From NCBI GenBank assembly GCA_964351995.1, contig CAYGQE010000001.1:1-48196 (forward strand): a DNA stretch of 48,196 bases, read 5' to 3'. The DNA comes from an uncultured Acidimicrobiaceae bacterium (lineage in GTDB: Bacteria > Actinomycetota > Acidimicrobiia > Acidimicrobiales > SZUA-35). Numbering within the stretch: position 1 is the stretch's first letter; the number at the start of each line of letters is the position of its first letter. Under the pieces are notes generated by a model. It had not been told where the DNA came from and searched no databases. It worked only from the letters and a program-made list of their open reading frames with translations. Both the position numbers and the translations under genes were made by a program. Below are positions 1,883-30,205 of the stretch, in pieces.

Positions 1883-1955
1883 GTCCTCCCTTTCGTCGAG
1901 CGGCCATCCTGACCTAGCGTCTGTGACGTTCGCCACTCGAAGATCGAGGTACCAG

Positions 1956-6573: not shown

Positions 6574-6612
6574 CCTGCTCCTGGCCCGCTGCGTTTCATC
6601 TAGCGTTGGGCC

Positions 6613-11444: not shown

Positions 11445-11617
11445 TACCGGGGTCAGGTCCCTTCAACTTCAACTTCACGTCCGACGAGAGCTGAAGCGAA
11501 CGGCCCTGATCCCGTTTGGAGAATTGGGGAACTCTTGGGGATGTGAAGCCGTTCACAGTCTCAACACCTGCGGCGTGCCAACATGGTCACGTCATCGCCG
11601 ACTGGAGAGGGGGCCGG

Positions 11618-12365: not shown

Positions 12366-14327
12366 ATGGGCACCATCATCCTCATTCTCGTCTTCCTGGT
12401 CCTGGGAGTCCTGGCCTTCGCCGTCCTGGCCGGCCTGGTGTACTCATCGCTGTACAAGAAGGTGCCACAGGGCAAGGCACTCGTTGTCTCCACGGCCAAG
12501 AACGTCGAGGTGACCTTCACTGGTCGCCTTGTGATCCCCGTGATCCACAAGGCCGAGATGATGGACATCTCGGTCAAGACCATCGAGATCGATCGCAGAG
12601 CGCACGAGGGTCTGATCTGCGAAGACAACATCCGAGCCGACATCAAGGTCAATTTCTTCGTTCGGGTCAACAAGGCCGAAGAAGACGTGATCAAAGTGGC
12701 TCAAGCCATTGGTTGCGAGCGAGCCAGCCAGGTCGAAACCTTGGAAGAGCTCTTCACCGCAAAGTTCTCCGAGGCGCTCAAGACCGTCGGCAAGCAGATG
12801 GAGTTCATCTCGCTCTACACCGAGCGGGCCAGCTTCCGTGACCGCATCATCGAGGTCATCGGCACCGACCTCAACGGCTACAGCCTCGAAGACGTCGCCA
12901 TCGACTTCCTCGAGCAGACGCCGCTGAGCCAGCTCGACGCCGACAACATCCTCGACTCACAGGGCATTCGCAAGATCACCGAGCTGACCGCCATCGAGAA
13001 GGTCGCTACCAACAACGCTGCCAACGACGAGCGAAAGCAGATCACAGCCAAGAACGTCGAGACCCGTGAAGCCGTGCTCGAACTCGAGCGCCAGCAGGCC
13101 GATGCCGAGGCTCGGCAACGTCGAGAGATTCAGGGCGTGCAGGCTCGCGAGCAAGCCACAATCGACACAATTACCGCCGAAGAGCGACTGCGGGCCGAGA
13201 TGGCCGCGATCGAAGTCGACCAGAAGCTTGGCGTCGAACGAGAAAACCTGCAGCGCGAGGTCGAAGTCGCGGCGAAGAATCGTGAGCGCGTCCTCGCCGT
13301 CGAAGAAGAGCGAGTCAAGAAAGCCGCCGAACTCGAAGACATGAGCCGCCAAGTCGAGACGCTCGCTGCCGAGAAGGCACTCGAAACCGAGATGGGCACG
13401 ATCGCCGAGATTCGCCGAAGCCGCATTGCCATCGACAAGACCGTGGCCGAACAAGAAGAAGCCATCGAGACATTGCGCATGGTCGAGGAGGCGCAACGTC
13501 AGAAGCAGTCAGCAATCATCCTCGCTGAGGGTGAAGCGGAAGCCGCGCTGGTCAAGGACATAAAGGCCGCCGAAGCACAGGCGGCAGCTGCCGAACACCT
13601 GGCCGCCGAAGACGTTCGCATGGCCAAGGGTCGAATGGAGGCAAGCAACCTCGACGCCGCAGCGAAGATCAAGCTGGCCGAAGGTGTCCAGGCCGAAGCA
13701 GCCGCAGTTGGTCTGGCCGAAGTCGAAGTGCTGGAAGCCCGAGCTGCGGCCAACGAAAAGCTCGGTCTCGCCGATGTCACCGTCGAACGAGCCAAGGCCG
13801 ACGCCGTGCGTGAGCTCGGTGCCGCCGAGGCCTCCAAAGTCCGCGACGCCGGAATGGCCGAGGCTGAAGTTGTCGAGGCCAAGCTCAAGGGTGAGGCCAG
13901 CGGTCTGACCGACAAGGCTGCGGCCATGCGCGAGCTCGAAGGGGTTGGCCAAGAGCACGAGGAATTCGTGCGCAAGCTGGAAGCCGACACGAAGGTGCGG
14001 CTGGCACAAGTCGATGCATCCATCGACGTGGCGACGGCACAGGCCGATGCGATGAAGGTCGGTCTGGAGAGCGCCAACATCGACATCGTCGGCGGCTCGG
14101 ACATCTTCATCGACAAACTGGTCGGCGCCATCAGCACCGGCAAGGCCGTCGATGGCTTCGTCGAGAGTTCCGACCTTGCGTCGGCATCGCTCGAGAAGTA
14201 CCAGAACGGTGACGAGGACTTGGTGGCCAAGATCTCCGAAGCCATCGCTGGTCTCGGCGCCGACGGCATTCGCGACCTCTCCGTTGCTGATCTCCTTCGC
14301 CAGCTCGGTGCCGGTCCTCGGCCCTAG
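12366..14327 (+). CDS. Flotillin-like protein (SPFH/band-7 domain plus long EA-rich coiled coil)
   Basis: An N-terminal TM/hairpin helix and an SPFH core (KVPQGKALVVS...IKVNFFVRV) are present. An extended Glu/Ala/Arg-rich coiled-coil region of about 350 aa resembles FloT-type flotillins. Confidence 0.8.
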   Translation: MGTIILILVFLVLGVLAFAVLAGLVYSSLYKKVPQGKALVVSTAKNVEVTFTGRLVIPVIHKAEMMDISVKTIEIDRRAHEGLICEDNIRADIKVNFFVRVNKAEEDVIKVAQAIGCERASQVETLEELFTAKFSEALKTVGKQMEFISLYTERASFRDRIIEVIGTDLNGYSLEDVAIDFLEQTPLSQLDADNILDSQGIRKITELTAIEKVATNNAANDERKQITAKNVETREAVLELERQQADAEARQRREIQGVQAREQATIDTITAEERLRAEMAAIEVDQKLGVERENLQREVEVAAKNRERVLAVEEERVKKAAELEDMSRQVETLAAEKALETEMGTIAEIRRSRIAIDKTVAEQEEAIETLRMVEEAQRQKQSAIILAEGEAEAALVKDIKAAEAQAAAAEHLAAEDVRMAKGRMEASNLDAAAKIKLAEGVQAEAAAVGLAEVEVLEARAAANEKLGLADVTVERAKADAVRELGAAEASKVRDAGMAEAEVVEAKLKGEASGLTDKAAAMRELEGVGQEHEEFVRKLEADTKVRLAQVDASIDVATAQADAMKVGLESANIDIVGGSDIFIDKLVGAISTGKAVDGFVESSDLASASLEKYQNGDEDLVAKISEAIAGLGADGIRDLSVADLLRQLGAGPRP

Positions 14328-14409
14328 GGGGCCTGCCGTTCCTCGGCCCTGGGGGCCTCGTCACTAACAGAGTTGCTCGCTGGCGCTCACAACTCCCACC
14401 TGGGAAGAC

Positions 14410-17400
14410 ATGACTGATACTGAAAGTTCAACAATTGAAGAAGCACCGGCGAGCAGCAATGAGGGGATCTCGCAGGGGACCTATGACTTGCTTCGAGGGC
14501 GGCTGGAAGCCGCGGCCAAGGAACTGGTCAAGCGAGCGGATGCTCTCAACGCCCGGCGGCTTGAGGCGTTCGGTTCAGCCAAGCTCGAACTGCTGACGAC
14601 GGAACGGGTTCGGACCGAGCTCAACACGATCCCGCGCGACATCGCCAACATCGGCTCGCAGATGGTCATGGCCTACAACGCCGAGGTCGGCGTCCGGTCA
14701 GAGGTCCGACCGGAGGACGTCTTCAGCGTCCATCACCTCGAGCCCGGCTCCGAGGGCGACGCCACCCTGTGGTTCAGTCCGAACCCCAAAGGTCTCGACG
14801 GCTCAGCCCTCGATGACGACCAGTTCCGTCGTGACTTCGAAGAGCTCCACACCTACTTCAGTCAGACAAAACTCGAACAGCTCTACGCCGTTGGCCAGAA
14901 GCTGTTGGCGGTGTTTCGCACCGGCCAAGGCGAGGGCGACCTTCGCGTCTTCCGTTGGGAGATCGGACTCGACGACCAGCTGACCTACCTCGACGCTCGA
15001 GGCGATCGAGACCACCGCTTCCCGCCGTCACAAGACGTCTCGTGGACGTTGTCGACCCGCGCCGATCACGTCAACGCCACGCATGTGGGGCTGGGCGAGC
15101 GCGTGCTGATCGACCCGCTCGGCGGGTCGCTGGTGATCCAACTGGCCGATGGCGGAGGCGATGGTTCAGGCACAAAGCTGCTGAGCGATCGCCTCGACCA
15201 CGCTGACCAGAGCTTGCAGGACTGCACCATTCGCTGGGCCAGAGCTGGCGATCTGATGCTGATCGACGTGCTTCCCTACGGCGAAGTTCAGCACCGCTAC
15301 TACATCGTGAATCTGCTGGTCGACAAGGCCGTCCGCATGGATGCGCTGGGGTCTGCGTTCCGTCAGCTACCCGATGGCCAGGGCCTCATCTTTCCCGAGG
15401 GCATCTACCTCAAGACCGGCGAGATGCGAACCTTCGATGTCGACTCTGCCAACGCCGAGTTGCTCGAAGTGGTCCGCTCCCCCAACGGCGAAGACGTGCT
15501 CTACGTCTTCCACGAACGCACCTCCGGCCGTTCCATCTTGTTGCCGTACAACGTGGTGCGTCAGGAAGTGGCGGCACCGATCTGGTGTCACGGTCACACC
15601 GTGTTCGATGACGGAACGCTTGTGGTGTTTCGCGAGGAGCCAGAGCCCACACGCATCCATCCGATGCAGGTTTGGTCGACGCCGTTCGGCGCCGACGAGT
15701 GGTATGCCCAACAGCCACGCACCGCATCAAACCTTGACCGCATCGGTAACGCCAGCCTCGTCAGCGGCATCGCCGACGCACTCTCGCTGTCCCGGCTGAT
15801 CGCCGACGTCGAGCCGTCGACCGCCATCTACACCGATCTCCTGTTGTCCGCTAGCCGATTCGTCGACAGCCATCACTGGAGCGGTGACGAAACTGTTGGC
15901 AACCTGGCCGAGAGCGCCCACGACATACGTGTCGTTGCGGAGCAGGTCATCGACGAGTTCGAGCGTATGCAAGCGGTACAAGCTGCGGCCGCTGCAGCCC
16001 TGGCAGAGGCCGAAGCCGAAGCGCTCAAGATCACCGATGACCTTCGCCTCTCGCCGCCGAAGACCACCGAGGGTTTCATTGACGGCCTGGCCGCGATCCG
16101 TCGCCAGATCGGACACCTCCACACCGAGCGTGAGCGCCGCGGTATCGACATCGCTCGCATCGACGAGCTGATCACCTCGACCACCGAAATCCACGACACG
16201 CTTGCCCAGCAAGCAGCGGCTCACCTCGCCGCCGACGGAGCGTTCGAGCCGTACCACCAGCAACTCACTACGCTCTCCAACGCCACCCCCGCTGCAGCGT
16301 CGTCACTGGAAGCAACCGAGACCCTCGAAGCCGTCGATGCACTGGCTGAATCGATGGATCTGGTCGCCAACACGGTGAGCGATCTCGTCGTTGACGACCC
16401 TCGCGTGCGCACCTCGGTGCTCGAACAGGTGGCGGGCGTGCTCGCCGAGATGAATCGGGTGCGGGCCGGCATCGAAGGCAAGCGAGATGAGCTGATCCAG
16501 AACGAGACCGGCGCGGCCTTTGCCACTGAGCTCGGCTTGTTCGGCCAGTCGATCGCCACTGCAGTCAGCCGGGCCAACACCCCTGAAGCCTGCGACGACG
16601 CGTTGGCCCGTCTCTTGCTTCAGCTCGAACAACTCGAAACCGCTGGTCCCCGCACCGACGACCAGGTCGAGGAGCTCTCCACCAGGCGAGACCAGGTCAC
16701 CGAGGCACTCACGTCTCGTCGGCAGCAACTGGTCGACGATCGCCAGCAGCGAGCCGATCGACTGATCGCCGCCGCCACCCGAACCCTGGACCGAGTGGCC
16801 GAGCGGGCACAGACAATGCCGTCAGCCGACGACGTCAACGCCTTCTTCGCCGCCGACCCCATGGTCGGCCGTGTCCGCAAACTGGTCGAGGATCTCCGCG
16901 AGCTCGGTGAGCCCGTCAGAGCAGACGAATTGCAGTCACAACTCGGCGCCTCCCGGGACCGTGCCGTCCGTGCGCTGCGAGACCGCCAGGATCTCTTCGA
17001 CGGCGACGCCGTGAAGCTCGGCCGCTTTCGCTTCAGCGTGGACGATCGCACCCGCGAACTCACGCTCGTCCCCGGCGAGCATCACCTGCAGGCCGTGCTC
17101 ACCGGCACCGATCTGCGACTCCCCATCGAAGACGAACGACTTGATGCTCACAAAGAGCTCTGGGAGCAACCGCTGGCATCTGAGACGCCCAAGCTGTACC
17201 GATCAGCCTTCCTCGCCGGCGACCTCCTCCTCACCGCACTCAGTCAATTCAATTCGTCTGAACAGCTCGACGGCGAGATCTCGCTCACTATTCCAGAGCC
17301 CAAGATCGGCACGGTCGACGGTGCCGTCACGCCGGGTGACACGACCGCATTGCTCGATCAGGTCCGATCGGCGGTTGATCGGCGCCTCGGCGAGGGGTAC

Positions 17401-19470
17401 GACCGTGGGGTTCATGATGTCGACGCCACGCAGATCCTCGGGGTCATCGGCACCAGAGCCATCGAGGCCGGACCGCTCACGACGCCGAGTGATGTGCGGG
17501 CCAATGCCCAGGTCGTGTGGGCGGGGCTGGCCGATGCATCTCGCCACCTGTGGACCGATCGAGGTCGAGCCATCGCCACCGCAGGCGCAGGCCGGGCCAC
17601 GCTCGACCGGCTGGCCGAGGAGCTGGTCGACACAACCAACAGTGACCGGCGCATGGCCGACTATCTGCTGTCGGAACTCGTCCGTCCAGAGGGCTTCAGT
17701 TTCGCTCAATCCTCCCGAGCCGCTGATCAGATCGCCACCATGCGACGGGACAAGGCGTTCAAAGCGGTGCTCGAAGCGGCCAGAGCCGACGTCGTTGGCA
17801 TCCTCCCGGTCATCGCCGACGCCGTGCAACGAGCGATGCCAGACGAACGCCATGTCGTCCCCGAGATCGCCGTCGCCCTTGCCATTCCTGACCTCGAACG
17901 GCGCACCGTCGATGTCGAGCTCGGCTTCACCGTGGCCGGCCTCAACGGCCGCCACCCCACCATCGTCGACGGCAAGATGACCGGTCGGATCGACGATCTC
18001 CTCGACCAAGTCGCCCAGCACCGGGCAACGGTCCTGCCGATGCACCAGGCCTTTGCCGCTGCTCGGCGCGAAACCCTCGAAGGCTTGCGCAAGACGCTTC
18101 GAGTCGACGACCTCGAGCCCCGAGTGCCCGATGGTTTCGTCCGCAACCAGCTGATCGACCAGATCTACCTGCCGCTGATCGGCGACAACCTCGCCCGCCA
18201 GATCGGCACCGTCGATGACCAGGGTGGCCAGCGATCTGGGCTGTTGATGCTGCTGTCGCCTCCCGGCTACGGCAAGACCACGCTGGTCGAATACGTCGCC
18301 TCTCGCCTCGGCATGGCACTGGTGAAAGTGTCGGGCCCCGGCCTTGGTCACGAAGTCACCTCGCTCGACCCCGGCCAGGCGCCGAGCGCCACGGCGGCTC
18401 GTGAGATCGAACGGATCAACCTGGCCTTCGCCGTTGGCACCAACGTCATCTTGTATCTCGATGACATCCAACACACCGACCCCGAACTGCTGCAGCGCTT
18501 CATCTCGCTGTGTGACGCCCAGCGCAGGGTCGAGGGTGTGTGGAACGGCGAGAGCCGAACGTTCGACCTCCGAGGTAAGCGCTTCGCCGTGGTGATGGCG
18601 GGCAATCCCTACACCGAGTCCGGCGATCGGTTCCGCATTCCCGACATGCTCGCCAACCGCGCCGACACCTACAACTTGGGTGACGTGCTCTCGGGCAACG
18701 AAGACGTCTTCGCTCGCAGCTACATCGAGAACGCTCTCACGGCCAACCCCACGCTTGCTCCGCTGGCAGGTCGAAGCGCAGCCGATCTCCAGCTGTTCTT
18801 CCGGGCGGCTGAGGGTTCGCCGCTCGAAGAATCATCGCTCGAACACGGCTACTCCAGCGCAGAGTCGAGCGAGATCGTCACTGTCCTCGGCCACCTCATG
18901 CGAGTCCAAGAAGTCGTCCTGAAGGTCAATCGGCAGTACATCGCATCAGCGGCCACCGACGATCAGTACCGCACCGAACCACCGTTTCTGCTGCAGGGTT
19001 CGTATCGAAACATGGCCCGCATGGCGTCAAAGCTTCTTCCAGCAATGACCAACGCTGAAGTCGATCGCATCGTTGACGAGCACTACGTCGCCGAGTCCCA
19101 AGCGCTCACCGGTCAGGCAGAAGCGAACCTGCTGAAGCTCGGCTCGATGCGAGGAACGTTGACTGCCGAACACCAAGAGCGATGGGACGACATCCTGCGT
19201 GTGTTCCAGCGTCAACAGCGCCTCGGCGGCGACGACCGCGACCCCGCCACTCGCGTGGTCGCAGCAATCGAGCAGGTGGCGGAAACGCTGTCTCGCCAGA
19301 GCAGTCAGGGTTCACAGTCCAGCAAGCCGGCGGAGCCACCGGTGATCAACATCACCGTTCCCGCTCCCGTCGTGGTGTCGTCACTCCCCGACCCGGCCGA
19401 CGAACCCCTCGCCCCATCGATCGACCTGACGCCAGACGAAGGCCCCGAACCCCCCGACGACCCCCGCTGA
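14410..19470 (+). CDS. Giant 1686-aa protein: long N-terminal region of unknown function plus C-terminal AAA+ (P-loop) ATPase domain
   Basis: This is a single uninterrupted ORF. It has Walker A SPPGYGKTT, Walker B ILYLDDIQ, and an AAA_5/McrB/MoxR-like sensor segment MAGNPYTESGDRFRIPDMLANRADTYNL, at roughly residues 1270-1500. The N-terminal 1250 aa are a mixed beta-rich and long helical/coiled-coil region with no motif I can assign. The C-terminal tail is Pro/Ser-rich. The gene is co-directional with nfeD-floT, 82 nt downstream of floT. Confidence 0.8.
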   Translation: MTDTESSTIEEAPASSNEGISQGTYDLLRGRLEAAAKELVKRADALNARRLEAFGSAKLELLTTERVRTELNTIPRDIANIGSQMVMAYNAEVGVRSEVRPEDVFSVHHLEPGSEGDATLWFSPNPKGLDGSALDDDQFRRDFEELHTYFSQTKLEQLYAVGQKLLAVFRTGQGEGDLRVFRWEIGLDDQLTYLDARGDRDHRFPPSQDVSWTLSTRADHVNATHVGLGERVLIDPLGGSLVIQLADGGGDGSGTKLLSDRLDHADQSLQDCTIRWARAGDLMLIDVLPYGEVQHRYYIVNLLVDKAVRMDALGSAFRQLPDGQGLIFPEGIYLKTGEMRTFDVDSANAELLEVVRSPNGEDVLYVFHERTSGRSILLPYNVVRQEVAAPIWCHGHTVFDDGTLVVFREEPEPTRIHPMQVWSTPFGADEWYAQQPRTASNLDRIGNASLVSGIADALSLSRLIADVEPSTAIYTDLLLSASRFVDSHHWSGDETVGNLAESAHDIRVVAEQVIDEFERMQAVQAAAAAALAEAEAEALKITDDLRLSPPKTTEGFIDGLAAIRRQIGHLHTERERRGIDIARIDELITSTTEIHDTLAQQAAAHLAADGAFEPYHQQLTTLSNATPAAASSLEATETLEAVDALAESMDLVANTVSDLVVDDPRVRTSVLEQVAGVLAEMNRVRAGIEGKRDELIQNETGAAFATELGLFGQSIATAVSRANTPEACDDALARLLLQLEQLETAGPRTDDQVEELSTRRDQVTEALTSRRQQLVDDRQQRADRLIAAATRTLDRVAERAQTMPSADDVNAFFAADPMVGRVRKLVEDLRELGEPVRADELQSQLGASRDRAVRALRDRQDLFDGDAVKLGRFRFSVDDRTRELTLVPGEHHLQAVLTGTDLRLPIEDERLDAHKELWEQPLASETPKLYRSAFLAGDLLLTALSQFNSSEQLDGEISLTIPEPKIGTVDGAVTPGDTTALLDQVRSAVDRRLGEGYDRGVHDVDATQILGVIGTRAIEAGPLTTPSDVRANAQVVWAGLADASRHLWTDRGRAIATAGAGRATLDRLAEELVDTTNSDRRMADYLLSELVRPEGFSFAQSSRAADQIATMRRDKAFKAVLEAARADVVGILPVIADAVQRAMPDERHVVPEIAVALAIPDLERRTVDVELGFTVAGLNGRHPTIVDGKMTGRIDDLLDQVAQHRATVLPMHQAFAAARRETLEGLRKTLRVDDLEPRVPDGFVRNQLIDQIYLPLIGDNLARQIGTVDDQGGQRSGLLMLLSPPGYGKTTLVEYVASRLGMALVKVSGPGLGHEVTSLDPGQAPSATAAREIERINLAFAVGTNVILYLDDIQHTDPELLQRFISLCDAQRRVEGVWNGESRTFDLRGKRFAVVMAGNPYTESGDRFRIPDMLANRADTYNLGDVLSGNEDVFARSYIENALTANPTLAPLAGRSAADLQLFFRAAEGSPLEESSLEHGYSSAESSEIVTVLGHLMRVQEVVLKVNRQYIASAATDDQYRTEPPFLLQGSYRNMARMASKLLPAMTNAEVDRIVDEHYVAESQALTGQAEANLLKLGSMRGTLTAEHQERWDDILRVFQRQQRLGGDDRDPATRVVAAIEQVAETLSRQSSQGSQSSKPAEPPVINITVPAPVVVSSLPDPADEPLAPSIDLTPDEGPEPPDDPR

Positions 19471-20193: not shown

Positions 20194-21228
20194 TCAGGAA
20201 CCCGCAGGGTTCCCGTAAGCGGAGCGAGCGGTGGTGACTTCGGCGCCGCGTTCTTCTGGTTCGTCGTCGAGCAGTTCAGCTGGGAACCCCGGCGCTGTGA
20301 CGGAGACACCGGTGGCGTCTTCGAGCCGACGGATCACGTTCGGCGACCACTCGCGATCGCCGTAGCGCGCAGCGGCATCTTCGAAGATGTTGATCATGAG
20401 CGGGTTCATCTCGAGCGGGACACCAACGTCGTCGGCAATCGACTGGAAGAGCCCGATGTCCTTCAACACGAGATCCATCGTGAAGCTGATGTCGCGACCG
20501 CCATTGAGAATGACCTGCCCCTCGGTCTCGTGGACGAACGAATTGCCGCTGGAGATTCGGAACGCCTCGTACGTCGTGGCCAAATCGATGCCTGCGGCAG
20601 CCATCGTCGTGAGCGCTTCTGTGACGGCGATCAAGTTGGCGGTGGCGAGATAGTTGGTTGCCACCTTCAGGATCGATGCCGACCCGAGGTCGCCAGTGTG
20701 AAGCACCCGCCGACCCAGGATCGTGAGCAAGGGAAGCACGCGGTCGAAGGTGGCTCGGTCGGTGCCAGCAAAAACCGAGATGTTGCCGGTGGCGGCTCGA
20801 TGGCAGCCGCCCGAGACGGGACAGTCGACAGCGGCGCCACCGGCTGCCGCAACGAGCGCTCCGAGCCGGGTGATCTCGGACGAATCAGTCGTCGACATCT
20901 CGAGCCAGACCGTGCCCGGACGCAACGCCGACAACACGCCGTCGTCAGCCTCCATCACCGCTGCTGAAGCAGCGGGTGACGGAAGGCAGGTGATGATCAC
21001 ATCGCAACGTTCCGCCAACTCAGCGGGTGATGAAGCAGCCGTTGCACCGTCGGCCACGAACGACGCCACGAGGTCGACGTCGAGGTCGCGAACCACGAGG
21101 TCGACACCATTGCGCAGCAGCGAACCAGCGAGCTTGCCACCGACGTTGCCCAGGCCGACAAAGCCAACGGTCGTGGACATCAGATCGGGGGAATGCAGAT
21201 CAATGTCGTTCGAATCCGTGGTGTTCAT
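20194..21228 (-). CDS. NAD(P)-dependent beta-hydroxyacid dehydrogenase (3-hydroxyisobutyrate / 6-phosphogluconate dehydrogenase family)
   Basis: A Rossmann motif VGFVGLGNVGG and family-typical downstream segments are present. The start is chosen at ATG 21228, which overlaps the upstream stop as ATGA. An alternative ATG is at 21180. Confidence 0.75.
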   Translation of the reverse strand: MNTTDSNDIDLHSPDLMSTTVGFVGLGNVGGKLAGSLLRNGVDLVVRDLDVDLVASFVADGATAASSPAELAERCDVIITCLPSPAASAAVMEADDGVLSALRPGTVWLEMSTTDSSEITRLGALVAAAGGAAVDCPVSGGCHRAATGNISVFAGTDRATFDRVLPLLTILGRRVLHTGDLGSASILKVATNYLATANLIAVTEALTTMAAAGIDLATTYEAFRISSGNSFVHETEGQVILNGGRDISFTMDLVLKDIGLFQSIADDVGVPLEMNPLMINIFEDAAARYGDREWSPNVIRRLEDATGVSVTAPGFPAELLDDEPEERGAEVTTARSAYGNPAGS

Positions 21229-21830
21229 GCGACGAGTTTGCCTGGTCCAGCAGCGATCACCGCGGGATCCCACGGGGTTCGAGCGAACACTTCCTGCACC
21301 TCGTCGACAAACGATGCGAGCGAGTCGATCGGGCCGTCCGGGTCGAACGAGTTCTGGTCCCATTGTGCGCAGAAGTCGGCGCAGAGTTCGAACCAAGGGT
21401 GGCCGGCGAATGCGTCCCGACCATTGCGATCACCGCCGAGGTGATGCGAGTAGTAGTAGCTCTGGAACACACCGTGCTGCTCGATCACCCAGCTCACCTC
21501 CTCCCGAACGTACGGACGCAACACACTGGCGGCATATTCGGCGTGGTTGTACGGAGCGAGCGCATCGCCGATGTCGTGCAAAAGGGTGGCAACAACCCAG
21601 TCGATGTCGGCTCCGGCCCGCCGGGCGCGAGTAGCGCTCTGTAGCGAGTGCTGCCGACGAGTGATCTGGTAGCCGTCGAGCGAGTCTTCGAGCCCAGCCA
21701 GTTCAGCAATCAAGCGGTCGGCCAGACCAGCGGCCGCCTTTCGTTCGAATCGATCGAGCATCGCGTAGTCAGCGGCGGTGCCGTGCTGCATCTCGGTGAA
21801 GGACACAGTGGTGTGTTCGGTCGAGGTCAT
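21225..21830 (-). CDS. PhnZ-family HD-domain oxygenase (mixed-valent diiron, C-P bond cleaving type)
   Basis: The protein is 201 aa. It has the HD motif LLHDIGD plus upstream QHSLQ, RAGAD and downstream EQHGV, which match the metal-ligand pattern of PhnZ/MIOX-type HD oxygenases. The start overlaps the upstream gene's stop. Confidence 0.7.
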   Translation of the reverse strand: MTSTEHTTVSFTEMQHGTAADYAMLDRFERKAAAGLADRLIAELAGLEDSLDGYQITRRQHSLQSATRARRAGADIDWVVATLLHDIGDALAPYNHAEYAASVLRPYVREEVSWVIEQHGVFQSYYYSHHLGGDRNGRDAFAGHPWFELCADFCAQWDQNSFDPDGPIDSLASFVDEVQEVFARTPWDPAVIAAGPGKLVA

Positions 21831-23020
21831 GCGGTGCTCTCATTTCGGGCGGCCAGGATCCATTCGGTGATGGGGCCGTCGTGGTCGATGTAGCACCCTT
21901 GCAAATGTCGATGGCCGAGGGTGGGATCGAAGGATGTCCGGCCGTGGAGCACCCGGTGATTGTCGACCACCAGGGTGTCGCCAGCGGACATGCGGTACTC
22001 GAGCTGGCGACTCGGATCGTTGAGCACCTCAGCGAGCCAGCGCCGTCCCCGGTAATAGATGTCGAGCGTCTTCCGATTGGCCAGCGGTGCGAAGTCGAGG
22101 CGAGGTGAGAATCGCAGTTGGCGAAACGATCCGTCCAGGTGACGCTCGATCAGCGGCGCTCGATGCACCTTCACATCCGTGCCGATGTCGTAGCGAAACT
22201 CCACCGGCAACGAACACAACAACTCGTACGCCTCCGGGTCGGCGACGGCCAGATCGTCAACCGCCGCTCGCCCGTCGACCATCGTCGAAGCGCCGCCGGG
22301 TGCATCGTTCACGATGGTGTGAAGGAATTGCAGCCCCGGTGCGGGCGCCCGGTACGGCTGATCGGTGTGGGCCGACAATGCCACCGGGGTGTAGGCAAGA
22401 TCGACCGCCATCGGTTCGGTGCGGACATCGAACAGCACGCCGAAGTTGGTCGCTGAGATCCGTCCAAAGTGCGAAGTGATCTCGTGCAGGGCACCGGGAA
22501 CTGCGGGAGTTCCGCGCAGCACGAAGAAGCCAAGCTCGAAGAAGGCGGTGAGCGCATGACGCTTTGCCGCGATCGCCACATCGACATGATCACCGGCGAT
22601 GGCACCGAAGTCGATGACCGGCACGTCGGTGCTGGCGGCCCGCCACGGAACCGCAGCGGGCGGCCCTTCCCTCTCGACACGTCGATGCTCCAGCGCTCGA
22701 ATCGTCGAGAGCGGCAAACACATCGCGTGTCCATCGGTGAACGTGACTTCGAGCTGCTGGTCGCACGTCAGGCCCGCTCGTACGACCTGCAGGTCGACGC
22801 TGATGTCTGTCGGTTCGATCAGACGCTGGCCGTTGACCGGATCGACAGCGTCCATCGATGTCGAACGCTCCCGCAACCACAACGGGTGGAGATCGATGAG
22901 CTCACAACCCCACCGGAGCAGCACACCACCGTCAACGACACGTACCTCGACACTTCCACGCACCAACACGCCACGATCATCGGTGCAGATGGATCGGCTG
23001 TACAGCCGCCGAGTTGGCAA
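21827..23020 (-). CDS. Fe(II)/2-oxoglutarate dioxygenase of the gamma-butyrobetaine-hydroxylase/TauD family (PhnY*/TmpA-like) with N-terminal DUF971-like domain
   Basis: An N-terminal Cys/His/Trp-containing segment (LRWGCELIDLHPLWLRER) resembles the gBBH N-domain. The C-terminal part carries a TauD-like HxD...H facial triad region (HTDQPY...HGR). The start is uncertain: it is a TTG at 23020, and internal GTG starts are possible. Confidence 0.65.
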   Translation of the reverse strand: MPTRRLYSRSICTDDRGVLVRGSVEVRVVDGGVLLRWGCELIDLHPLWLRERSTSMDAVDPVNGQRLIEPTDISVDLQVVRAGLTCDQQLEVTFTDGHAMCLPLSTIRALEHRRVEREGPPAAVPWRAASTDVPVIDFGAIAGDHVDVAIAAKRHALTAFFELGFFVLRGTPAVPGALHEITSHFGRISATNFGVLFDVRTEPMAVDLAYTPVALSAHTDQPYRAPAPGLQFLHTIVNDAPGGASTMVDGRAAVDDLAVADPEAYELLCSLPVEFRYDIGTDVKVHRAPLIERHLDGSFRQLRFSPRLDFAPLANRKTLDIYYRGRRWLAEVLNDPSRQLEYRMSAGDTLVVDNHRVLHGRTSFDPTLGHRHLQGCYIDHDGPITEWILAARNESTA

Positions 23021-23023
23021 GCT

Positions 23024-23044
23024 GCCATACTCTCAAAGCATGGC
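23024..23044. promoter_or_regulatory. LysR-type T-N11-A box GCCAT-N11-ATGGC in the divergent intergenic region
   Basis: GCCAT at 23024-23028, an 11-nt spacer, and ATGGC at 23040-23044. It lies between the dioxygenase start (23020, -) and the lysR start (23072, +). Confidence 0.4.
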
Positions 23045-23071
23045 TCTCTCGATTCGGTGGCGAACCTCGAC

Positions 23072-23977
23072 ATGAGACCACTCGTGCGATCGGTCGATCG
23101 GCTTCAGCGGCTGGCCACATTCGAAGCGGCGGCACGGTTGGGCAGCTTCTCGGCTGCCGGGCGCGAACTCGGGCTGGCCCAACCAGCGGTGACCAGGCAA
23201 ATTCAGGCTCTCGAGCGAGCACTCGACGTCTCGCTCTTCGAGCGTCACGCCAATCGCAGCACCTTGACCGACGCCGGTCATCTCCTCGCCGACAGTCTCG
23301 ACATCAGCTTCGGTGCGCTCGAACACACGCTCGACGAGATCGCGCGCGTCGACGACACCTTCGTCCTTGCCATGCCGCCCGGCTTTGCCCAGCAACTGAT
23401 CGTTCCCCGGCTCGATGAGCTCCAACGGGCCCTCGGCGATCGGGATCTCCGGCTTTGGCTCTATGACCGAGAGGCAGAACTGGGACACAGTTCGTTTGAC
23501 GCCGCTGTCCGGGTCGGGACAGGAGATTGGGCTGGCTTCGACTGCCAGTTCCTTCTGGCCGAGGTCGTGCTTCCTGTCTCGACTCCAGCCGTCGCCGAGC
23601 AGTGGGGACTTGGCCCTGAGAGTACAGCCGATGATGTCCTGCGGGCCCCGCTACTGCACATGGACGCCGCCGACCGGCCATGGCTGTCGTGGTCAGACTG
23701 GCTGGCCACGTTCGGTCTCGCCCTCACACCTGGGCGGCGCCGAGTGGTCTTCAACAACTACCCGTCGGTGCTGCAGCAGGTCGTCAGCGGTCAAGGCGTT
23801 GCGCTGGCATGGTCAGGTCTCACTGATCAACTGATCGCCGATGACGTACTGACGATCGTTGGGCCATCGGTCGCCTCGGACCGGGCGTACCACGTCACCT
23901 GGAAGCATGGCCGTCGAACCGCAGCGGTGGATTCGGTCAGCACATGGCTGGCCGAGACCGTCGCTCGCCCAGAGTGA
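23072..23977 (+). CDS. LysR-family transcriptional regulator
   Basis: An N-terminal wHTH (LQRLATFEAAARLGSFSAAGRELGLAQPAVTRQIQALE) and a LysR substrate-binding domain are present. The start is at the internal ATG 23072, because the long track ORF is antisense overlap. Confidence 0.85.
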   Translation: MRPLVRSVDRLQRLATFEAAARLGSFSAAGRELGLAQPAVTRQIQALERALDVSLFERHANRSTLTDAGHLLADSLDISFGALEHTLDEIARVDDTFVLAMPPGFAQQLIVPRLDELQRALGDRDLRLWLYDREAELGHSSFDAAVRVGTGDWAGFDCQFLLAEVVLPVSTPAVAEQWGLGPESTADDVLRAPLLHMDAADRPWLSWSDWLATFGLALTPGRRRVVFNNYPSVLQQVVSGQGVALAWSGLTDQLIADDVLTIVGPSVASDRAYHVTWKHGRRTAAVDSVSTWLAETVARPE

Positions 23978-24045
23978 GCGGACAAGAGTCCCGAGATTCC
24001 GGACGGGGCACCTGCGTCGAGAGGCCACCTTCGTAGGGTGCCGAC

Positions 24046-24714
24046 ATGGCCAAACTCATCGACCTCAGCCACGTGATCACCGACGGTATGACCACCTACC
24101 CAGGGCTGCCCGAGCCCACCGTGGCCGACCACCTCACTCGCGAGACAGCCGAGCAGATCTACGGCCCCGGCATCACATTCCAGATCGGTCTGATCACGAT
24201 GTGCACGAACACCGGGACCTATCTCGACGTGCCGTTCCACCGCTTCGCCGATGGCCATGACCTCACCCAGTTGAAGCTCGAGCGAGTTGCCGCAGTGCCT
24301 GCAGTGCACCTCGATCGGCGAAGCGATCTGATTGACGGCAACCGAGCGATCGAACTGACAGACGAAGACCTCAGCAGCGTTGCCGGCCACGCCGTGCTCA
24401 TCCAGACCGGGCACGCTGCCCACTGGGGCACCGACGCCTACTTCGTCGATCATCCATACATCACCAAAGCGTCCGCCGAGGCTCTCGTGCGGGCAGGCGT
24501 TGCCTGCGTGGGCATCGACACCCTCAACATCGACAGCACCGACGGCGGCGAGCGACCGGTGCACACGACGCTGCTCGGCTCAGAGATTCCGATCATCGAA
24601 CATCTCGTTCATCTCGAGCAGTTGCCGGCTAGCGGGTTCACCTTCACCGCCGTGCCGCCCAAGATCCAAGGAGCCGGAACGTTCACGGTCAGAGCCTTCG
24701 CAACAGTCGGCTGA
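24046..24714 (+). CDS. Cyclase-family protein (kynurenine-formamidase-like metal-dependent hydrolase)
   Basis: A putative-cyclase-family segment NTGTYLDVPFH (the HxGTHxDxPxH-type region) is present, and length is about 220 aa. Confidence 0.75.
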   Translation: MAKLIDLSHVITDGMTTYPGLPEPTVADHLTRETAEQIYGPGITFQIGLITMCTNTGTYLDVPFHRFADGHDLTQLKLERVAAVPAVHLDRRSDLIDGNRAIELTDEDLSSVAGHAVLIQTGHAAHWGTDAYFVDHPYITKASAEALVRAGVACVGIDTLNIDSTDGGERPVHTTLLGSEIPIIEHLVHLEQLPASGFTFTAVPPKIQGAGTFTVRAFATVG

Positions 24715-24735
24715 TCAACTTCAGGCGCTCGAGCA

Positions 24736-25692
24736 ATGGCGTCCTCGCATAGTGTCTCGCCCGTGAACTCAGCACCTGATCTTCCCACCATTGGCTTCGT
24801 CGGCCTCGGCAACATGGGCGGACCCATGGCTCGCCGCCTGGCGGCCGCAGGGCACGAGGTCATCTGTTTCGATCTCAACGCCGATGCAATTGCCGAAACG
24901 GTCACTGCTGGCGCCCGTGCCGCAAGCTCCGCCGCTGCGTGCGCTTCGGCTGCCGAACTGTTCTTGACCTCGCTCCCCCGGCCCGACCACGTCGAAGCAG
25001 TCATGGGCGGGCCAGAAGGTGCTCTCGCTGCGTTGCAGCCGGGCTCGATCTGGGTTGATCTCACCACGAACCGCAAAGAACTCGTGCAGGCCTTCGCAGC
25101 GGCAGCGCCAGACGGGGTCACCGTTGTCGACTCGCCCGTCACCGGCGCGGTTGACGGTGCCAGGAACGGAAAACTCACCCTCTTTGCGGGCGGTGACGAC
25201 GCTTCGCTTGATCGGGTCGTCCCCGTGCTCGAGAACCTCGGCCTGGTCATCCGTTGCGGTCCACTTGGCACTGGCAACGTGGTGAAGTTGGTCACCAACC
25301 AGCTGTGGTTCGTCGCTGCAGCAGCGATTGGAGAGGGTTTCGCGACCGGTCTCGCGAACGGCGTCGACCTCGACACCTTGTGGTTCGCCATCAAGGAGAG
25401 CGTTGGCGACAGCTTCGTTGCCCGGCATGACGCACCGTCGATCTTTGCCGGCCACTACGACCCCTCGTTCAGCCTCGATCTCTGCCTGAAGGACCTCGGT
25501 CTCATTCAGGAACTCAACAGACCAATCGATGCCAGCTTCCCCATGACCGACGCAGCCCAAGCGACGTTCCAAAAGGCAGCGGATCGCTACGGCAGCGACG
25601 TCGGCGAGTTGCACGTGGCAAAACAGATCGAGGACGACGCCCAATTGTCGTTCCGGCTCGACGGCGACTGGACCCCGCCCTGGGAGCAGTAG
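24736..25692 (+). CDS. NAD(P)-dependent beta-hydroxyacid dehydrogenase (3-hydroxyisobutyrate dehydrogenase family), second copy
   Basis: The motif IGFVGLGNMGGPMA and a conserved catalytic Lys region (GNVVKLVTN) are present. Confidence 0.85.
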   Translation: MASSHSVSPVNSAPDLPTIGFVGLGNMGGPMARRLAAAGHEVICFDLNADAIAETVTAGARAASSAAACASAAELFLTSLPRPDHVEAVMGGPEGALAALQPGSIWVDLTTNRKELVQAFAAAAPDGVTVVDSPVTGAVDGARNGKLTLFAGGDDASLDRVVPVLENLGLVIRCGPLGTGNVVKLVTNQLWFVAAAAIGEGFATGLANGVDLDTLWFAIKESVGDSFVARHDAPSIFAGHYDPSFSLDLCLKDLGLIQELNRPIDASFPMTDAAQATFQKAADRYGSDVGELHVAKQIEDDAQLSFRLDGDWTPPWEQ

Positions 25693-26451: not shown

Positions 26452-28497
26452 TCACCAGTGACGGAGGTCGACCGGCCAACGGTCGATGATCTTGTCGCCA
26501 TCGACCAGCCACATGTCTTGATGACGAGCAACCGTTGGATCGACATGGGCTGGTTGCAGTCGAATCAGATCGCCCACCGACCACGCTCCGGGCTCGTTGG
26601 CCTGCATCGTGATGTGCTCGTCTGAGCAGAACATCACCTTGCCGTGGGCCCACGACGGATTCCCGTGGTCCATGCCCTGGGCCTTGAGGCCGGCATCGGC
26701 GATCACCCAGCCGTCCGGGTGGATGGCGATGACCGTGGCCAGGATTTCCAGCGCCACCGAGAACGGCAGATCGAGGCTGTCGTACTGGGTGTCCATCAGG
26801 CAATAGCTCCCAGCCTGGATCTCGGTGCACCACGTGTTGGTGTCGAAGGTGCCCGTACCTCCGCCGGAGATGATGTCGCCGCCGACCACGTCAGCTGCTT
26901 TCAACAACTCGGCCATGGATGCCTCGACCTTGTCAATGCGCTTCGAGCGGTCCTCGATCATCATCAGATGACCCTCGTAACCCATGACGCCCCGCACATC
27001 GAGGCCAGCCTTCCTTGCTCGCTCCGCAAGCCGGCCGGCATCATCGGGACGACACCCGCACCGGGGCAAGCCGACATTCACGTCGATCAGCACCGAGCGG
27101 ATCCCACCGATGATCGCCGCGTCGAGGGTGGCATCGCTGTCGACGGCAACAGTGATCTGGGCCTGGTCAGCAAGCGCTCCGAGACGGGCGGTGTCGAGAG
27201 TTTCGTTGGCCAGGAGCAGGTCAGACGTGAGCCCGGCAGCGACCAGTCCCTCGATCTCTCGAGGCGTTGCGGCACAGAAAGCCGTGTGGCGATCGGCGGC
27301 CAACCGCTTGGCCAACTCCGTCGACTTGAAGGCCTTCACATGGGGCCGCAACTGCACGCCGGGTCGGACCGAATCCATCGCCGCACAGTTCGCTTCGAAG
27401 ATCGACGACTCGACCACGAGGGCCGGCGTGGGTAGATCTTCGATCGAGCCTGGTTCGCCAGGAAGCCGGCGCTGCCGACGCAGAACCGGCGGAAGCTTGC
27501 CTGTCGTCAGCGCCTCGTGGACCGTCAACGCAATGGTGGGGTCGTTCAAGTAGCCCTCGACCTTGTGGTGGTTGATGGTCTCGTTGTCGACCGTTCCGTG
27601 ATTCAGGATCGGTGGCGTGACAGCGAAGTGTCGATGGTCAAGCGGGTAAAGCGCCACGACGTCACGGGTGTCATAAGCATTGAGCCAGTGGTCGACGGTC
27701 GGCGGATGCAGCATGGGACTGACGGCCTTGCGGATGGCCGTCACGCCGAGCGGTGATCCAATCGTGACGAAGGCGGCGATCTCATAGTCGTGCGCCAGGC
27801 CACCGTGGGCCAGCAGGTTGTAAGCGATCACTGAGCCCAGGGAATGGGCGATCACGACAATGGTGTCGTCCGGTTCGCATTCGTTGAAGGCGGCTGCGAC
27901 CACACCGTTGATCTCGTCCTGGATGAGCTCGTTCCTCAGATACTGAGCGACATCGTTCGTGGCGTAGGCCACGCTGGCACCACTGGCACCCGGGATGAAA
28001 CGATCGAGAATCGACAGCCCGGTGTGCACCCACTCCCAGGTGAGGGCACCACCACCCTTGGCATCTTCGATCGCAGCTTCATCGACCACCTCGGGGTCGA
28101 TCTCGGCATCGATGGCTTCGGCGGAAACGCCAGAAGCATCGAGCACCTCGCCAAGCACCTTGCGCCCGAACTCCGCCGATCCACCGGCTTCCTCGACAAC
28201 CTCGTCACCGAATACCGCATCAGCCTCTTCGAGTGACTCCTCCCGCGTCAGTTCGTGGAGGGCATCGCCGAAGAACGGAAAGATGATGTCGGCTTCATCG
28301 ACTGGGTGATCGAGTCCCAGTCGATCGAAGCCGGCAATCAACGCCTCGAGCCAATGCCGCTTCAGCTCAACTGGGTCTTTCCCCTGCTGGTTTCGGCCGT
28401 GGATGAAGATCAGTTTCGTAGCCACGGCGCACAGTGTTGCACCGAGACGGCCCCGTGGGTCAGTGGCCGGCAGAAACCTTGCCCGTGGTGCGGGCAT
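26452..28497 (-). CDS. Fusion protein: N-terminal alpha/beta-hydrolase domain plus C-terminal DSD1 / D-threonine-aldolase-like fold-type-III PLP domain
   Basis: The N-terminal domain has FIHG and GxSxG (AHSLGS) motifs. The C-terminal domain has the PLP-lysine motif RPHVKAFKS, which is close to RPHAKTHK of D-threonine aldolase / D-serine dehydratase-like enzymes. It is a single 681-aa ORF. The start is ambiguous: ATG 28497 or GTG 28425. Confidence 0.7.
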
Positions 28498-29995
28498 GCA
28501 GATCGAAGGCGTGGCGATTCAGGCCAACGAGGTGGGCCTCGATGTCCAAGTCAGCGAACTTGGCCACGACCTGATCGAGCGCAGCCACCGCTGACGTGTC
28601 CCAGATGCGGGCATCCGAACAGTCGATCTCGACCCGCTTGACCTTCACGTTGTGATAGTCGAATGAGCAAACCAGATCGTTGGTCGAGGCAAAGAACAAC
28701 TCGCCGGTCACGGCGTAGAGACGCTCGTGGTTGTCGGGGTCGACCACGCTGGTGACCTTGACGACTTCGGAGATGTTGCGAGCGAACGCAACGGCGGAGA
28801 GCACCACACCGGCGGCAACGCCGTAGGCGAGGTTGTGGGTGAAGACAACGACCGCGACCGTGACGACCATGATGATCGTCTCGGGCTTTGGCGTGTGCTG
28901 AAGGGTAGGAAGCTTGATGCTGTTCCAATTGAACGTGCCGATCGACACCATGATCATCACGGCCACGAGGGCAGCCATCGGGATCTGGGCGACGAGATCG
29001 CCGAGCACGAGAATCAAGATCAACAAGAAGACACCAGAGGCCAGTGTCGACAGCCGAGTACGACCACCGGAGCGGTAGTTGATCATCGATTGCCCGATCA
29101 TGGCGCAACCGGCCATACCGCCGAGGAAACCGGTGGCGACGTTGGCCACACCCTGACCGCGGGACTCGCGGTTCTTGTCAGACGGTGTGTCGGTGAGGTC
29201 ATCGAGCAACTGGGCGGTGAGAAGGGACTCGAGCAGGCCAACGAAGGCCAGCGTGATCGAGAACGGCAGGATGATCTGCAGCGTCTCGAGCGTGAACGGC
29301 ACGTCGGGAAGGCTCAGGAATGGAAGCGCTGAGGGCAGTTCGCCCATGTCGCCGACGGTCGGGAGGTTGAGATCCCAGTACATGGCGGCAGCGGCAAGAA
29401 CAACGATCGCCACCAGCGGCGATGGCACCGACTTGGTGAGGCGAGGAAGGCCGTAGATCACGCCGAGGCCGAGAGCGATGAACACGAGGTTCAAAGGGAG
29501 CTGGTTCGAGGCGTCATCGCTGTCAGAAAGCACGATGTGCGGGATCTGGGCGAGGAAGATGAGGATGGCAAGGGCATTCACGAAGCCGACCATCACGGTT
29601 CGAGGAACGAACCGCATGAGTTCGCCGATGCCCAGATAACCGAGCCCGACCTGGAGTGCGCCGGCCAAGATCGTGGCGGCAAAGAGGTAGGCAACGCCAT
29701 GCTCGGCGACCAAGTCGACCAGAACGAGCGCCATGGCGCCGGTGGCGGCCGAGATCATGCCGGAACGGCCGCCGGCGATCGAGATGATGATGGCGATCGA
29801 GAACGAGGCGTAGAGCCCGACTTTCGGATCGACCCCGGCGATGATCGAGAACGAGATGGCCTCGGGGATGAGAGCGAGAGCAACAACGAGGCCAGACAGC
29901 AGATCGGTCCGAGGGTTCGACAGCCACTCGGCCTTCATGCGTTCAGCAAAGGATGGCTCAGCACCCACGGGCGCCGGTGTGGAGGTGGAAGTCAT
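28460..29995 (-). CDS. SulP/SLC26-family anion (sulfate) permease with C-terminal STAS domain
   Basis: About 11 TM helices are predicted. SulP signature-like segments and a STAS-type C-terminal domain are present. ATG 29995 with an AAGGA RBS is preferred over the TTG at 30031. Confidence 0.85.
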
Positions 29996-30205
29996 GGGTC
30001 CTTGCGAGGTTGCGAACGGGGGCGAAGACAAAAAGCCGCGTCGTTGCTATCTACTCATCGGCGCCGAAGGCGACGCTATGAGCATTTCGGACTATGTGCG
30101 ACGAGGTCTTTTTTCACACACAGACAGCCCGAGGGTCGACGCGACCGCAGTGTCACACCCCGCGAGGAAGATGAAGAGAGGTTCCCCACCGAGATCGGAG
30201 ACAGT

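Follow-up and report, generated by a model that had tools for sequence, protein, structure and literature searches.

A dioxygenase–HD protein operon of an uncultured Acidimicrobiaceae bacterium may hydroxylate and cleave a trimethylammonium compound

Which compound is the substrate of the dioxygenase and the small HD-domain protein encoded at positions 20194-25692 of a 48,196 nt stretch of DNA from an uncultured Acidimicrobiaceae bacterium (contig CAYGQE010000001.1 of assembly GCA_964351995.1; the whole stretch is hereafter called the window)? The initial annotation, made from the sequence alone, had assigned the pair to the PhnY*/PhnZ or TmpA/TmpB type, an oxidative route that breaks the carbon-phosphorus (C-P) bond of aminoalkylphosphonates, and had placed it in a cluster with a LysR regulator, two beta-hydroxyacid dehydrogenases and a cyclase-family hydrolase. 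We tentatively favor another substrate: the LysR-controlled operon may first hydroxylate and then cleave a trimethylammonium (onium) compound, which is probably no phosphonate. The type of module is known; the HD family, its residue signatures and the probable substrate class are new with respect to the literature searched.

The interval contains six genuine open reading frames (ORFs) on the strands claimed in the initial annotation, and each has a clear Pfam match that confirms its domain class. The features are as follows, with Pfam E-values in brackets.

20194-21228, minus strand: HIBADH1, a beta-hydroxyacid dehydrogenase (NAD_binding_2, 5.6e-38; NAD_binding_11, 2e-21)
21225-21830, minus strand: HD protein of 201 amino acids (aa) (HD, 1.7e-7)
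21827-22969, minus strand, the ORF reaching to 23020: Fe(II)/2-oxoglutarate (2OG) dioxygenase (TauD, 1.6e-40)
22970-23071, unstranded: divergent intergenic/control region of ~100 bp, assuming that the dioxygenase starts at GTG 22969
23072-23977, plus strand: LysR-family regulator with an in-frame ATG at 23072 (HTH_1, 1.3e-20; LysR_substrate, 2.6e-18)
24046-24714, plus strand: cyclase/kynurenine-formamidase-like hydrolase (cyclase domain, 7.6e-23)
24736-25692, plus strand: HIBADH2, a second beta-hydroxyacid dehydrogenase (3.6e-40)

The ATGA at 21225-21228 is common to the stop codon of the HD gene and the start codon of HIBADH1, in agreement with the translational coupling of HIBADH1 claimed previously, and the end of the dioxygenase ORF overlaps the start of the HD ORF by 4 nt (21827-21830). 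These 4 nt overlaps at both junctions indicate that the three minus-strand genes are translationally coupled. The ORF 20194-21396 is over-extended, the true start of HIBADH1 being the ATG at 21228. Alignment with homologues places the start of the dioxygenase probably at GTG ~22969 and not at TTG 23020, which leaves the divergent control region of ~100 bp; the N-terminal domain of this protein would be cut off in a public gene call, which is 342 aa long. The public names are 'HD domain-containing protein' or 'predicted HD phosphohydrolase' for the HD protein, '3-hydroxyisobutyrate dehydrogenase' for HIBADH1, and 'gamma-butyrobetaine hydroxylase' (gBBH) or 'TauD/TfdA family dioxygenase' for the dioxygenase. 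The closest relatives with organism names are Ilumatobacter and Ilumatobacteraceae metagenome-assembled genomes (MAGs) of marine Acidimicrobiia.

The HD protein carries the motifs QHSLQ, RAGAD and LLHDIGD, as had been noted before, and the residues H61, H85, D86, H96, H119 and D158 are invariant in 30 close homologues and in 85 sequences from several phyla. This H..HD..H..H..D pattern is the ligand set of the diiron HD oxygenases (PMC8177086), and the six residues align to the ligands of TmpB and PhnZ. The AlphaFold (AF2) model of the HD protein (predicted local distance difference test score, pLDDT, 90.5) matched PhnZ and TmpB over its full length in Foldseek, with PhnZ at the top (E 7e-6; template modeling score, TM, 0.61/0.68; 25% identity) and TmpB second (E 1e-3, TM ~0.6). 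Similarly, an hhalign comparison of profiles matched four PhnZ/TmpB sequences with a probability of 97.4% (135 columns, 25% identity). On the PhnZ (TIGR03276), PhnZ1 and TmpB models, however, the HD protein scored 32.8, 24.6 and 23.7 bits over ~45-60 residues against cut-offs of 214.6, 300 and 300 bits, while true members scored 108-352 bits on the same models, including subfamily cross-hits of 108-227 bits and a true TmpB at 351 bits.

The residues that set PhnZ and TmpB apart have been lost. The YxxE loop, which gates substrate and O2 binding in PhnZ (Y24/E27) and TmpB (Y30/E33) (PMC8177086), aligns with L51-D52-G53-Y54 of the HD protein. The Tyr/Glu pair of PhnZ, which the initial annotation had proposed to compare, is thus not conserved, its Tyr being replaced with Leu and its Glu with an invariant Tyr (LxGY). 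Among residues invariant in the four PhnZ/TmpB references, HDxGH has become HDIGD, and AKRY after the fourth His has become FQxY. The S..S..QGG motif is absent from the HD family, the Arg of RxxD, three residues before the last Asp, is replaced with a variable residue, and the 13-residue insertion that follows the HD dyad in the references is missing. We take the HDxGH, AKRY, S..S..QGG and RxxD residues to be those that contact the phosphonate in PhnZ. Invariant residues peculiar to the family are Y54, R58, R68, D89, W114, Q123, R138, C154, Q159 and F162. Judged by its sequence, the HD protein is a homologue of PhnZ and TmpB with the same fold and not a member of these families, and sequence and model together predict a mixed-valent diiron oxygenase.

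Two other identities were rejected. MIOX (PF05153) reached 20.4 bits against a Pfam gathering score of 25 and gave a weak fold match (Foldseek E 0.27, TM 0.47/0.38), and MIOX is a larger protein; a SmaX-type mono-iron HD oxygenase (His, His, Asn) is at odds with the retention of all six ligands. The initial annotation had considered grouping of the HD protein with MIOX-type enzymes and of the dioxygenase with gBBH as results that would speak against its idea; the HD protein lies nearer to PhnZ/TmpB and the dioxygenase nearest to TmpA, and in this respect the idea survived. The HD-domain oxygenases in the literature searched were MIOX, PhnZ (with PhnZ1), TmpB, PhoF and SmaX only, and these sources contained no description of the present HD family nor of an HD gene in carnitine operons.

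The dioxygenase shows a comparable relation to TmpA. TmpA is its best solved relative (6npb, E 1e-56; human BBOX, 6e-26), and it shares 34% identity with a TmpA orthologue. It stayed below the cut-offs of the TmpA (NF049936; 306.5 versus 400 bits), gBBH (TIGR02409; 234 versus 414.75 bits) and trimethyllysine dioxygenase (TIGR02410; 144 versus 268.3 bits) models, while control TmpA orthologues encoded on Aliiroseovarius and Labrenzia plasmids (L086 and L087) passed the first with 582 and 577 bits. The N-terminal DUF971-like domain that had been proposed was borne out in part: the alignment with TmpA takes in the N-terminal region of the latter and PF06155 is present in some relatives, but Pfam finds no GBBH-like_N (formerly DUF971) domain in the window protein itself. 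The assignment to a PhnY*/PhnZ- or TmpA/TmpB-type pair therefore stands as far as architecture, ligands, fold and the proximity of TmpA are concerned, but by the NCBIfam cut-offs neither protein belongs to the phosphonate families.

The Fe triad H218/D220/H359, the 2OG-binding R371 and the onium cage F193/F197/Y210/Y377 of the dioxygenase are invariant in 28 homologues. TmpA binds the phosphonate through N187, N287 and R288, and BBOX binds its ligand through N191 and N293 (PMC9296572). N187 of TmpA is replaced with an invariant D207 and N287 with P306 (Asn in SAR11), whereas R288 is kept as R307. In TMLH (cage W221/Y217/Y234, triad H242/D244/H389), specificity is thought to come from binding of the trimethyllysine alpha-ammonium by Asp231, which is homologous to BBOX Asn191 (PMC7764450). 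The cage and the Fe triad have the same spacing in the window protein as in TMLH and BBOX, such that Y217-W221-D231-Y234-H242-D244 of TMLH corresponds to F193-F197-D207-Y210-H218-D220, and this exact register places D207 at the position of TMLH Asp231, where BBOX has Asn191. In a signature table and a neighbor-joining tree, the signature D207, R/K307, D309 characterized one HD-linked dioxygenase clade (D-type), sister to TmpA, with members in Acidimicrobiia, SAR11, Marinomonas, Alteromonas, Dongia and Steroidobacteraceae and in four fusion proteins. SAR11 gBBH-type paralogues adjoining carnitine dehydrogenase have N, A and M at positions 207, 307 and 309. Lying in register with TMLH Asp231, the Asp/Arg/Asp signature points to a trimethylammonio amino acid as the substrate.

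The distribution of the HD family provided a second line of evidence. Confirmed members of the family are present in 596 or more species genomes (pattern scan, one genome per species), among them Rhodobacteraceae, Mesorhizobium, Hoeflea, Roseibium/Labrenzia, Kiloniella, Alteromonas, Marinomonas, Steroidobacteraceae, a Dehalococcoidia MAG and 12 Pelagibacteraceae (SAR11) genomes. Across phyla, the members are 50-61% identical to the window protein. Cultured carriers include Marinomonas communis DSM 5604 (L014), Alteromonas sp. P256, A. profundi, Hoeflea sp. YIM 152468, Mesorhizobium shonense and Labrenzia sp. DG1229. HMMER against 1.84 billion representatives (50% identity) returned 324 proteins at E <= 1e-30, a number that rose to 1372 when the limit was relaxed to E <= 1e-10. 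When ten long HD relatives were tested, seven were TauD-HD fusions (P0388, P0395, P0428, P0431, P0460, P0472 and P0495; D-type signature in four) and one was an FA_hydroxylase-HD fusion (P0412). P0388 comes from the amoeba Dracoamoeba jomungandri, and the cluster of P0412 includes P0513 from the alga Mantoniella antarctica, both from MMETSP transcriptomes. The fusions do not keep Y54 and R58, which are invariant in bacteria (GA.V..Y instead), and have HDIGE in place of HDIGD.

Partners and neighbors of the HD gene were counted over 84 loci, in which the following genes lie directly upstream of it.

GBBH-like (TauD-type) dioxygenase: ~19 of 84 loci
PhyH-family dioxygenase: ~17 of 84, in Rhodobacteraceae and related bacteria
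BKACE: 8 of 84, in the operon BKACE-HD-carnitine dehydrogenase/thioesterase-acyl-CoA dehydrogenase-ADP-forming CoA ligase
purF: 8 of 84, in SAR11
PotD-like binding protein: 4 of 84
Rieske-domain protein: 2 of 84 (L033, and L082 with a homologous upstream ORF)

The coupling or fusion of the HD protein to four unrelated hydroxylase superfamilies, together with the full diiron site and the PhnZ/TmpB fold, supports a sequence of hydroxylation and oxidative cleavage. The family is also repeatedly linked to gBBH, carnitine dehydrogenase (CDH) and BKACE genes, a connection shared with the TMLH/BBOX enzymes. Four SAR11 loci combine gBBH-CDH-BKACE with a divergent AMP-binding acyl-CoA synthetase-like gene followed by a D-type dioxygenase and HD; the synthetase-like enzyme might handle acetoacetate from BKACE. 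In Marinomonas, LysR is divergent from dioxygenase-HD-BCCT transporter, and in L072 an MttB-family methyltransferase and a dimethylglycine-dehydrogenase-like gene stand beside HD. In another 10-11 loci, HD has amino-acid (SBP_bac_3), polyamine-type or Dpp-type (peptide) ABC components next to it. PDB searches with two neighbor genes from Granulosicoccaceae gave no matches.

These findings bear on the phosphonate reading, in which an aminoalkyl- or trimethylammonioalkyl-phosphonate would be hydroxylated at C1 and its C-P bond cleaved to give phosphate plus glycine betaine or glycine, with HIBADH as an accessory. The parallels are considerable. TmpA/TmpB of Leisingera caerulea, a 2-trimethylaminoethylphosphonate (TMAEP) hydroxylase and a mixed-valent diiron HD oxygenase, likewise combine a GBBH-like caged hydroxylase with a small HD protein that has the H..HD..H..H..D ligands, and true TmpAB loci have the same layout of a LysR gene divergent from dioxygenase-HD. 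TmpA is the best match of the dioxygenase among both solved structures and NCBIfam models, its clade is sister to that of the dioxygenase, PhnZ and TmpB have the folds nearest to the HD protein, and TmpA R288 has a conserved Arg as its counterpart. PhnY*/PhnZ (2-aminoethylphosphonate) and Gimesia PhnZ1 follow the same logic of hydroxylase and then HD oxygenase, with a further likeness in the PhyH-type hydroxylases that precede the present HD family in ~17 loci.

Phosphorus-related genes were found within 5 kb of HD in 3 of the 84 loci. PhnD/E is located 3.6 kb away in L004, an orphan PstS-like (PBP_like_2) protein is encoded at 10786-11835 (+), 216 bp directly downstream of dioxygenase-HD, in L046 (a Dongia MAG), and a phosphoesterase (phosphoesterase/PLC-family gene) follows HD in L072. 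L046 represents the strongest phosphorus-related context seen for the HD family; a PAS-HisKA histidine kinase is also encoded there at 5544-6938 (+), ~0.9 kb past the divergent LysR gene and 1.8 kb upstream of the dioxygenase. Together with the conserved Arg307, the three phosphorus-linked loci keep the phosphonate reading alive.

Nevertheless, we consider a phosphonate substrate unlikely. Neither protein reaches the curated cut-offs, although true controls do, and the Tyr/Glu loop, the His of HDxGH, the Lys and Arg of AKRY, S..S..QGG and the Arg of RxxD are all absent. The acidic side chain that replaces TmpA N187 would be unfavorable at a phosphonate site. True TmpB/PhnZ loci are accompanied by an alkaline-phosphatase family gene, by phnCDE or by a Na/Pi symporter, whereas no phnCDE or Pho-type context is present here and phosphorus-related genes are near HD in only the three loci above. 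In addition, the same genera, Labrenzia and Roseibium, hold both true TmpAB and this HD family, which suggests that the two HD families are not redundant. A plasmid of Labrenzia sp. THAF191a (L087) carries a true locus of LysR divergent from TmpA-TmpB-alkaline phosphatase family, while the new HD family is found in chromosomal loci of Labrenzia, Roseibium and Stappia (L024, L031 and L064), with an amidase gene upstream of HD in L024. The operon also differs from TmpA/TmpB in its coupled dehydrogenase, and the context of the HD family is quaternary-amine, that is carnitine/betaine, catabolism, not phosphorus acquisition or phosphonate uptake. The loss of the PhnZ/TmpB-specific motifs, the Asn-to-Asp replacement in the dioxygenase and the carnitine/betaine context argue against a phosphonate substrate, and the aminoalkylphosphonate route of the initial annotation is accordingly not favored.

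In the onium reading that we favor, the aromatic cage of the dioxygenase would hold the onium group and Asp207, Arg307 and Asp309 would recognize the far end of the substrate, so that a methylene carbon would be hydroxylated, as the conserved residues suggest. With its diiron cofactor and O2, the HD protein would then cleave beside the new hydroxyl in a four-electron oxidation, releasing a shorter betaine carboxylate; this step is modeled on PhnZ, TmpB and MIOX and would be in keeping with the fold, the ligand set and the gene fusions. The leading candidate for the substrate is N-epsilon-trimethyllysine (laminine) or a shorter analogue, which could be converted via the 3-hydroxy compound to gamma-butyrobetaine, glyoxylate and ammonium. 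In Acidimicrobiia, HIBADH1 might reduce the aldehyde fragment, e.g. glyoxylate or a semialdehyde. Cleavage of trimethyllysine would fit the adjacent gamma-butyrobetaine/carnitine genes, the amino-acid-type transporters and the coupled dehydrogenase, which resembles tartronate semialdehyde reductase (TSR)/glyoxylate reductase. Laminine, gamma-butyrobetaine and delta-valerobetaine are listed among the seaweed betaines (PMC8000310); the literature searched held nothing on bacterial trimethyllysine catabolism. The more specific proposal that mixed-valent diiron oxygenases of a new class, represented by the HD family, cleave the carbon-carbon (C-C) bond of beta-hydroxylated onium compounds, e.g. 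3-hydroxy-trimethyllysine, is possible, though on the doubtful side.

MIOX and SmaO/SmaX are the precedents for C-C instead of C-P cleavage by HD oxygenases. SmaO and SmaX convert Asp via beta-hydroxy-Asp to aminomalonate in a peptide that is made on the ribosome and modified after translation (RiPP), so that SmaX also acts after Fe/2OG hydroxylation on a non-phosphonate, but it is a mono-iron enzyme (His, His, Asn) with a peptide substrate (PMC12186529). This precedent for HD cleavage of an alpha-hydroxycarboxylate would equally suit an alpha-oxidation, in which beta-alanine betaine (or dimethylsulfoniopropionate, DMSP) would be alpha-hydroxylated and then oxidatively decarboxylated by the HD protein to glycine betaine (or dimethylsulfonioacetate) and CO2. 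Such a substrate would be isosteric with TMAEP, fitting the sister relation of the clade to TmpA, and BCCT and LysR in Marinomonas as well as the abundance of the HD family in SAR11 and roseobacters are consistent with it. However, a plain carboxylate would be expected to retain the Asn pair of gBBH, not to gain two Asp, the SmaX site differs from the six ligands conserved here, and both HIBADH1 and the HD genes inside hydroxylase-less carnitine operons would be left without a role or explanation. We regard alpha-oxidation as quite unlikely.

Most HD proteins are phosphohydrolases (PMC8177086), and 'predicted HD phosphohydrolase' is among the public names. The HD protein could be a metal-dependent hydrolase, e.g. 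of phosphocholine or another quaternary-amine ester, or a housekeeping enzyme, and its adjacency to hydroxylases would reflect a shared pathway without oxidative cleavage. The phosphoesterase/PLC-family gene beside HD in L072 and the solo HD genes beside purF in SAR11 are in line with such a function. This appears highly improbable, as the closest structural matches are to the three small HD oxygenases that are known and not to hydrolases, the oxygenase-type six-ligand site is invariant, and fusion to or tight coupling with four unrelated hydroxylase superfamilies argues for a hydroxylated substrate. The eight solo loci (L045, L058, L062, L069, L073, L080, L083 and L084; ~8510-10550 in each) have the order dnaB-...-cvpA-purF-HD; a thioredoxin-like DUF255 gene is next in L045 and a GCS2-type glutamate-cysteine ligase gene in five of the eight.

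Several observations also weigh against the trimethylammonium reading. The substrate is deduced from a few residues and from gene neighborhoods, and the 80 loci scanned were the best matches to an Acidimicrobiia profile, so that the locus counts describe that sample. Overall, the dioxygenase is nearer to TmpA than to eukaryotic TMLH (306 versus 144 bits), it retains the Arg equivalent to the phosphonate-binding R288, and a few loci do have phosphorus-related neighbors. No hydroxylase gene is near the eight SAR11 HD genes beside purF, which no pathway reading explains, and the HD genes of the carnitine operons have no adjacent hydroxylase either, which leaves their substrate unexplained. The comparisons of scores and folds covered PhnZ, PhnZ1, TmpB and MIOX; fungal PhoF, a fusion enzyme, also cleaves C-P bonds. 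Finally, HIBADH1 does not belong to the module outside Acidimicrobiia, and its role is thus weakly constrained.

The conserved module, LysR divergent from dioxygenase-HD-HIBADH1, is smaller than the cluster proposed in the initial annotation. In the distant Acidimicrobiia loci L001, L004, L006 and L007, this arrangement is present without cyclase and HIBADH2. A divergent LysR gene was seen in L001, L004-L007, L014, L016, L025 and L046, and LysR is kept with the dioxygenase-HD pair in Acidimicrobiia, Marinomonas, Alteromonas and Dongia. LysR comes nearest to the NCBIfam models of the choline-sulfate utilization regulator (194 bits) and of GcvA (172 bits) but stays below the cut-off of each. The control region contains two short, perfect palindromes, GGCTGTACAGCC at 22996-23007 and, of the T-N11-A type, TGGCAAGCTGCCA at 23015-23027. 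The latter, a candidate LysR box, was found in no related locus, and therefore it is probably not a conserved operator and a function is unsupported. A scan for promoters and terminators found nothing above shuffled controls and no sigma-70-like promoter in the control region.

HIBADH1 is part of the operon in Acidimicrobiia only, with homologues 75-93% identical. All 120 HIBADH1 homologues among the matches listed were at least 75% identical, the named ones being from Ilumatobacter or other Acidimicrobiia, and the sole distant case, in L072 (66% identity), adjoins an aldehyde dehydrogenase gene 8 kb from HD. Both dehydrogenases have NAD_binding_2 and NAD_binding_11 domains and a catalytic-Lys motif (GSASILKVATN in HIBADH1, GTGNVVKLVTN in HIBADH2), and neither reaches an NCBIfam equivalog model; 2-hydroxy-3-oxopropionate reductase is the best model for HIBADH1 (173 bits versus a cut-off of 397).

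The divergent arm that had been included in the cluster holds up in its LysR gene, which is conserved with the pair, but not in cyclase and HIBADH2. These two genes are separated by 22 nt in the window and are possibly co-transcribed. In the close relatives L005, L090 and L092, cyclase, HIBADH2, OsmC and a giant DUF3686 ATPase are syntenic, but an FA_desaturase gene lies between cyclase and HIBADH2 in L090 and L091, and a 432-aa ORF lies between LysR and cyclase in L092. Cyclase is missing from L001, L004, L006 and L007, and HIBADH2 from the more distant Acidimicrobiia loci. We therefore rejected cyclase and HIBADH2 as conserved parts of the pathway: they are limited to close relatives and split there by inserted genes, which marks them as lineage-specific neighbors outside the module.

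If the proposed C-C cleavage by the HD family is true, the module would constitute a new, O2-dependent entry into carnitine/glycine-betaine catabolism, replacing the textbook aldolase and aldehyde dehydrogenase steps known from carnitine biosynthesis (PMC7764450), in which no HD oxygenase is known. Its users would be SAR11, roseobacters, Alteromonas, marine Acidimicrobiia and, as fusions, marine protists. Should the substrate be trimethyllysine or another betaine, this would add a new link into the gamma-butyrobetaine/carnitine/glycine-betaine network, and one more HD oxygenase family, carried by 596 or more species genomes, would extend the chemistry of HD oxygenases. SAR11 is generally regarded as a dominant marine heterotroph, and its presence among the carriers suggests that the substrate is an abundant dissolved nitrogen or carbon compound. 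Given their distant homology to PhnZ and the name 'HD phosphohydrolase', members of the family could be miscounted as phnZ in loose surveys of marine phosphonate genes; published estimates of phnZ abundance diverge widely (PMC10574752).

Other genes of the window were also inspected. The 681-aa protein encoded at 26452-28497 (-) has C-terminal Ala_racemase_N and D-ser_dehydrat matches and a ~330-aa N-terminal region with no Pfam match on record, overlaps the SulP transporter gene at 28460-30031 (-) by 38 nt, and is syntenic with the cluster in close relatives only. Among the enzymes of the Ala_racemase_N/D-ser_dehydrat group is D-threonine aldolase, whose substrates are beta-hydroxy-alpha-amino acids. 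The interval 12366-19470 (+) holds an ORF of 653 aa that has no Pfam match and, after it, a 1686-aa DUF3686/DUF7902/AAA protein; in L090 and L092, a homologous protein of 1686-1693 aa adjoins OsmC, and next comes a gene of 649 aa, for which no Pfam match is on record. An RPE65-family carotenoid oxygenase (503-2059, -), an AMP-binding enzyme (1794-3527, +) and an allophanate-hydrolase-like amidase (7323-9155, -) are seemingly unrelated to the cluster. An EgtD-like, histidine-specific S-adenosylmethionine (SAM) methyltransferase (Methyltransf_33, 7.6e-99) is encoded at 40962-41930 (+) and overlaps the next gene (41927-42958, +) by 4 nt; by its sequence, this gene points to synthesis of a trimethyl-histidine betaine of the hercynine/ergothioneine type in the same genome.

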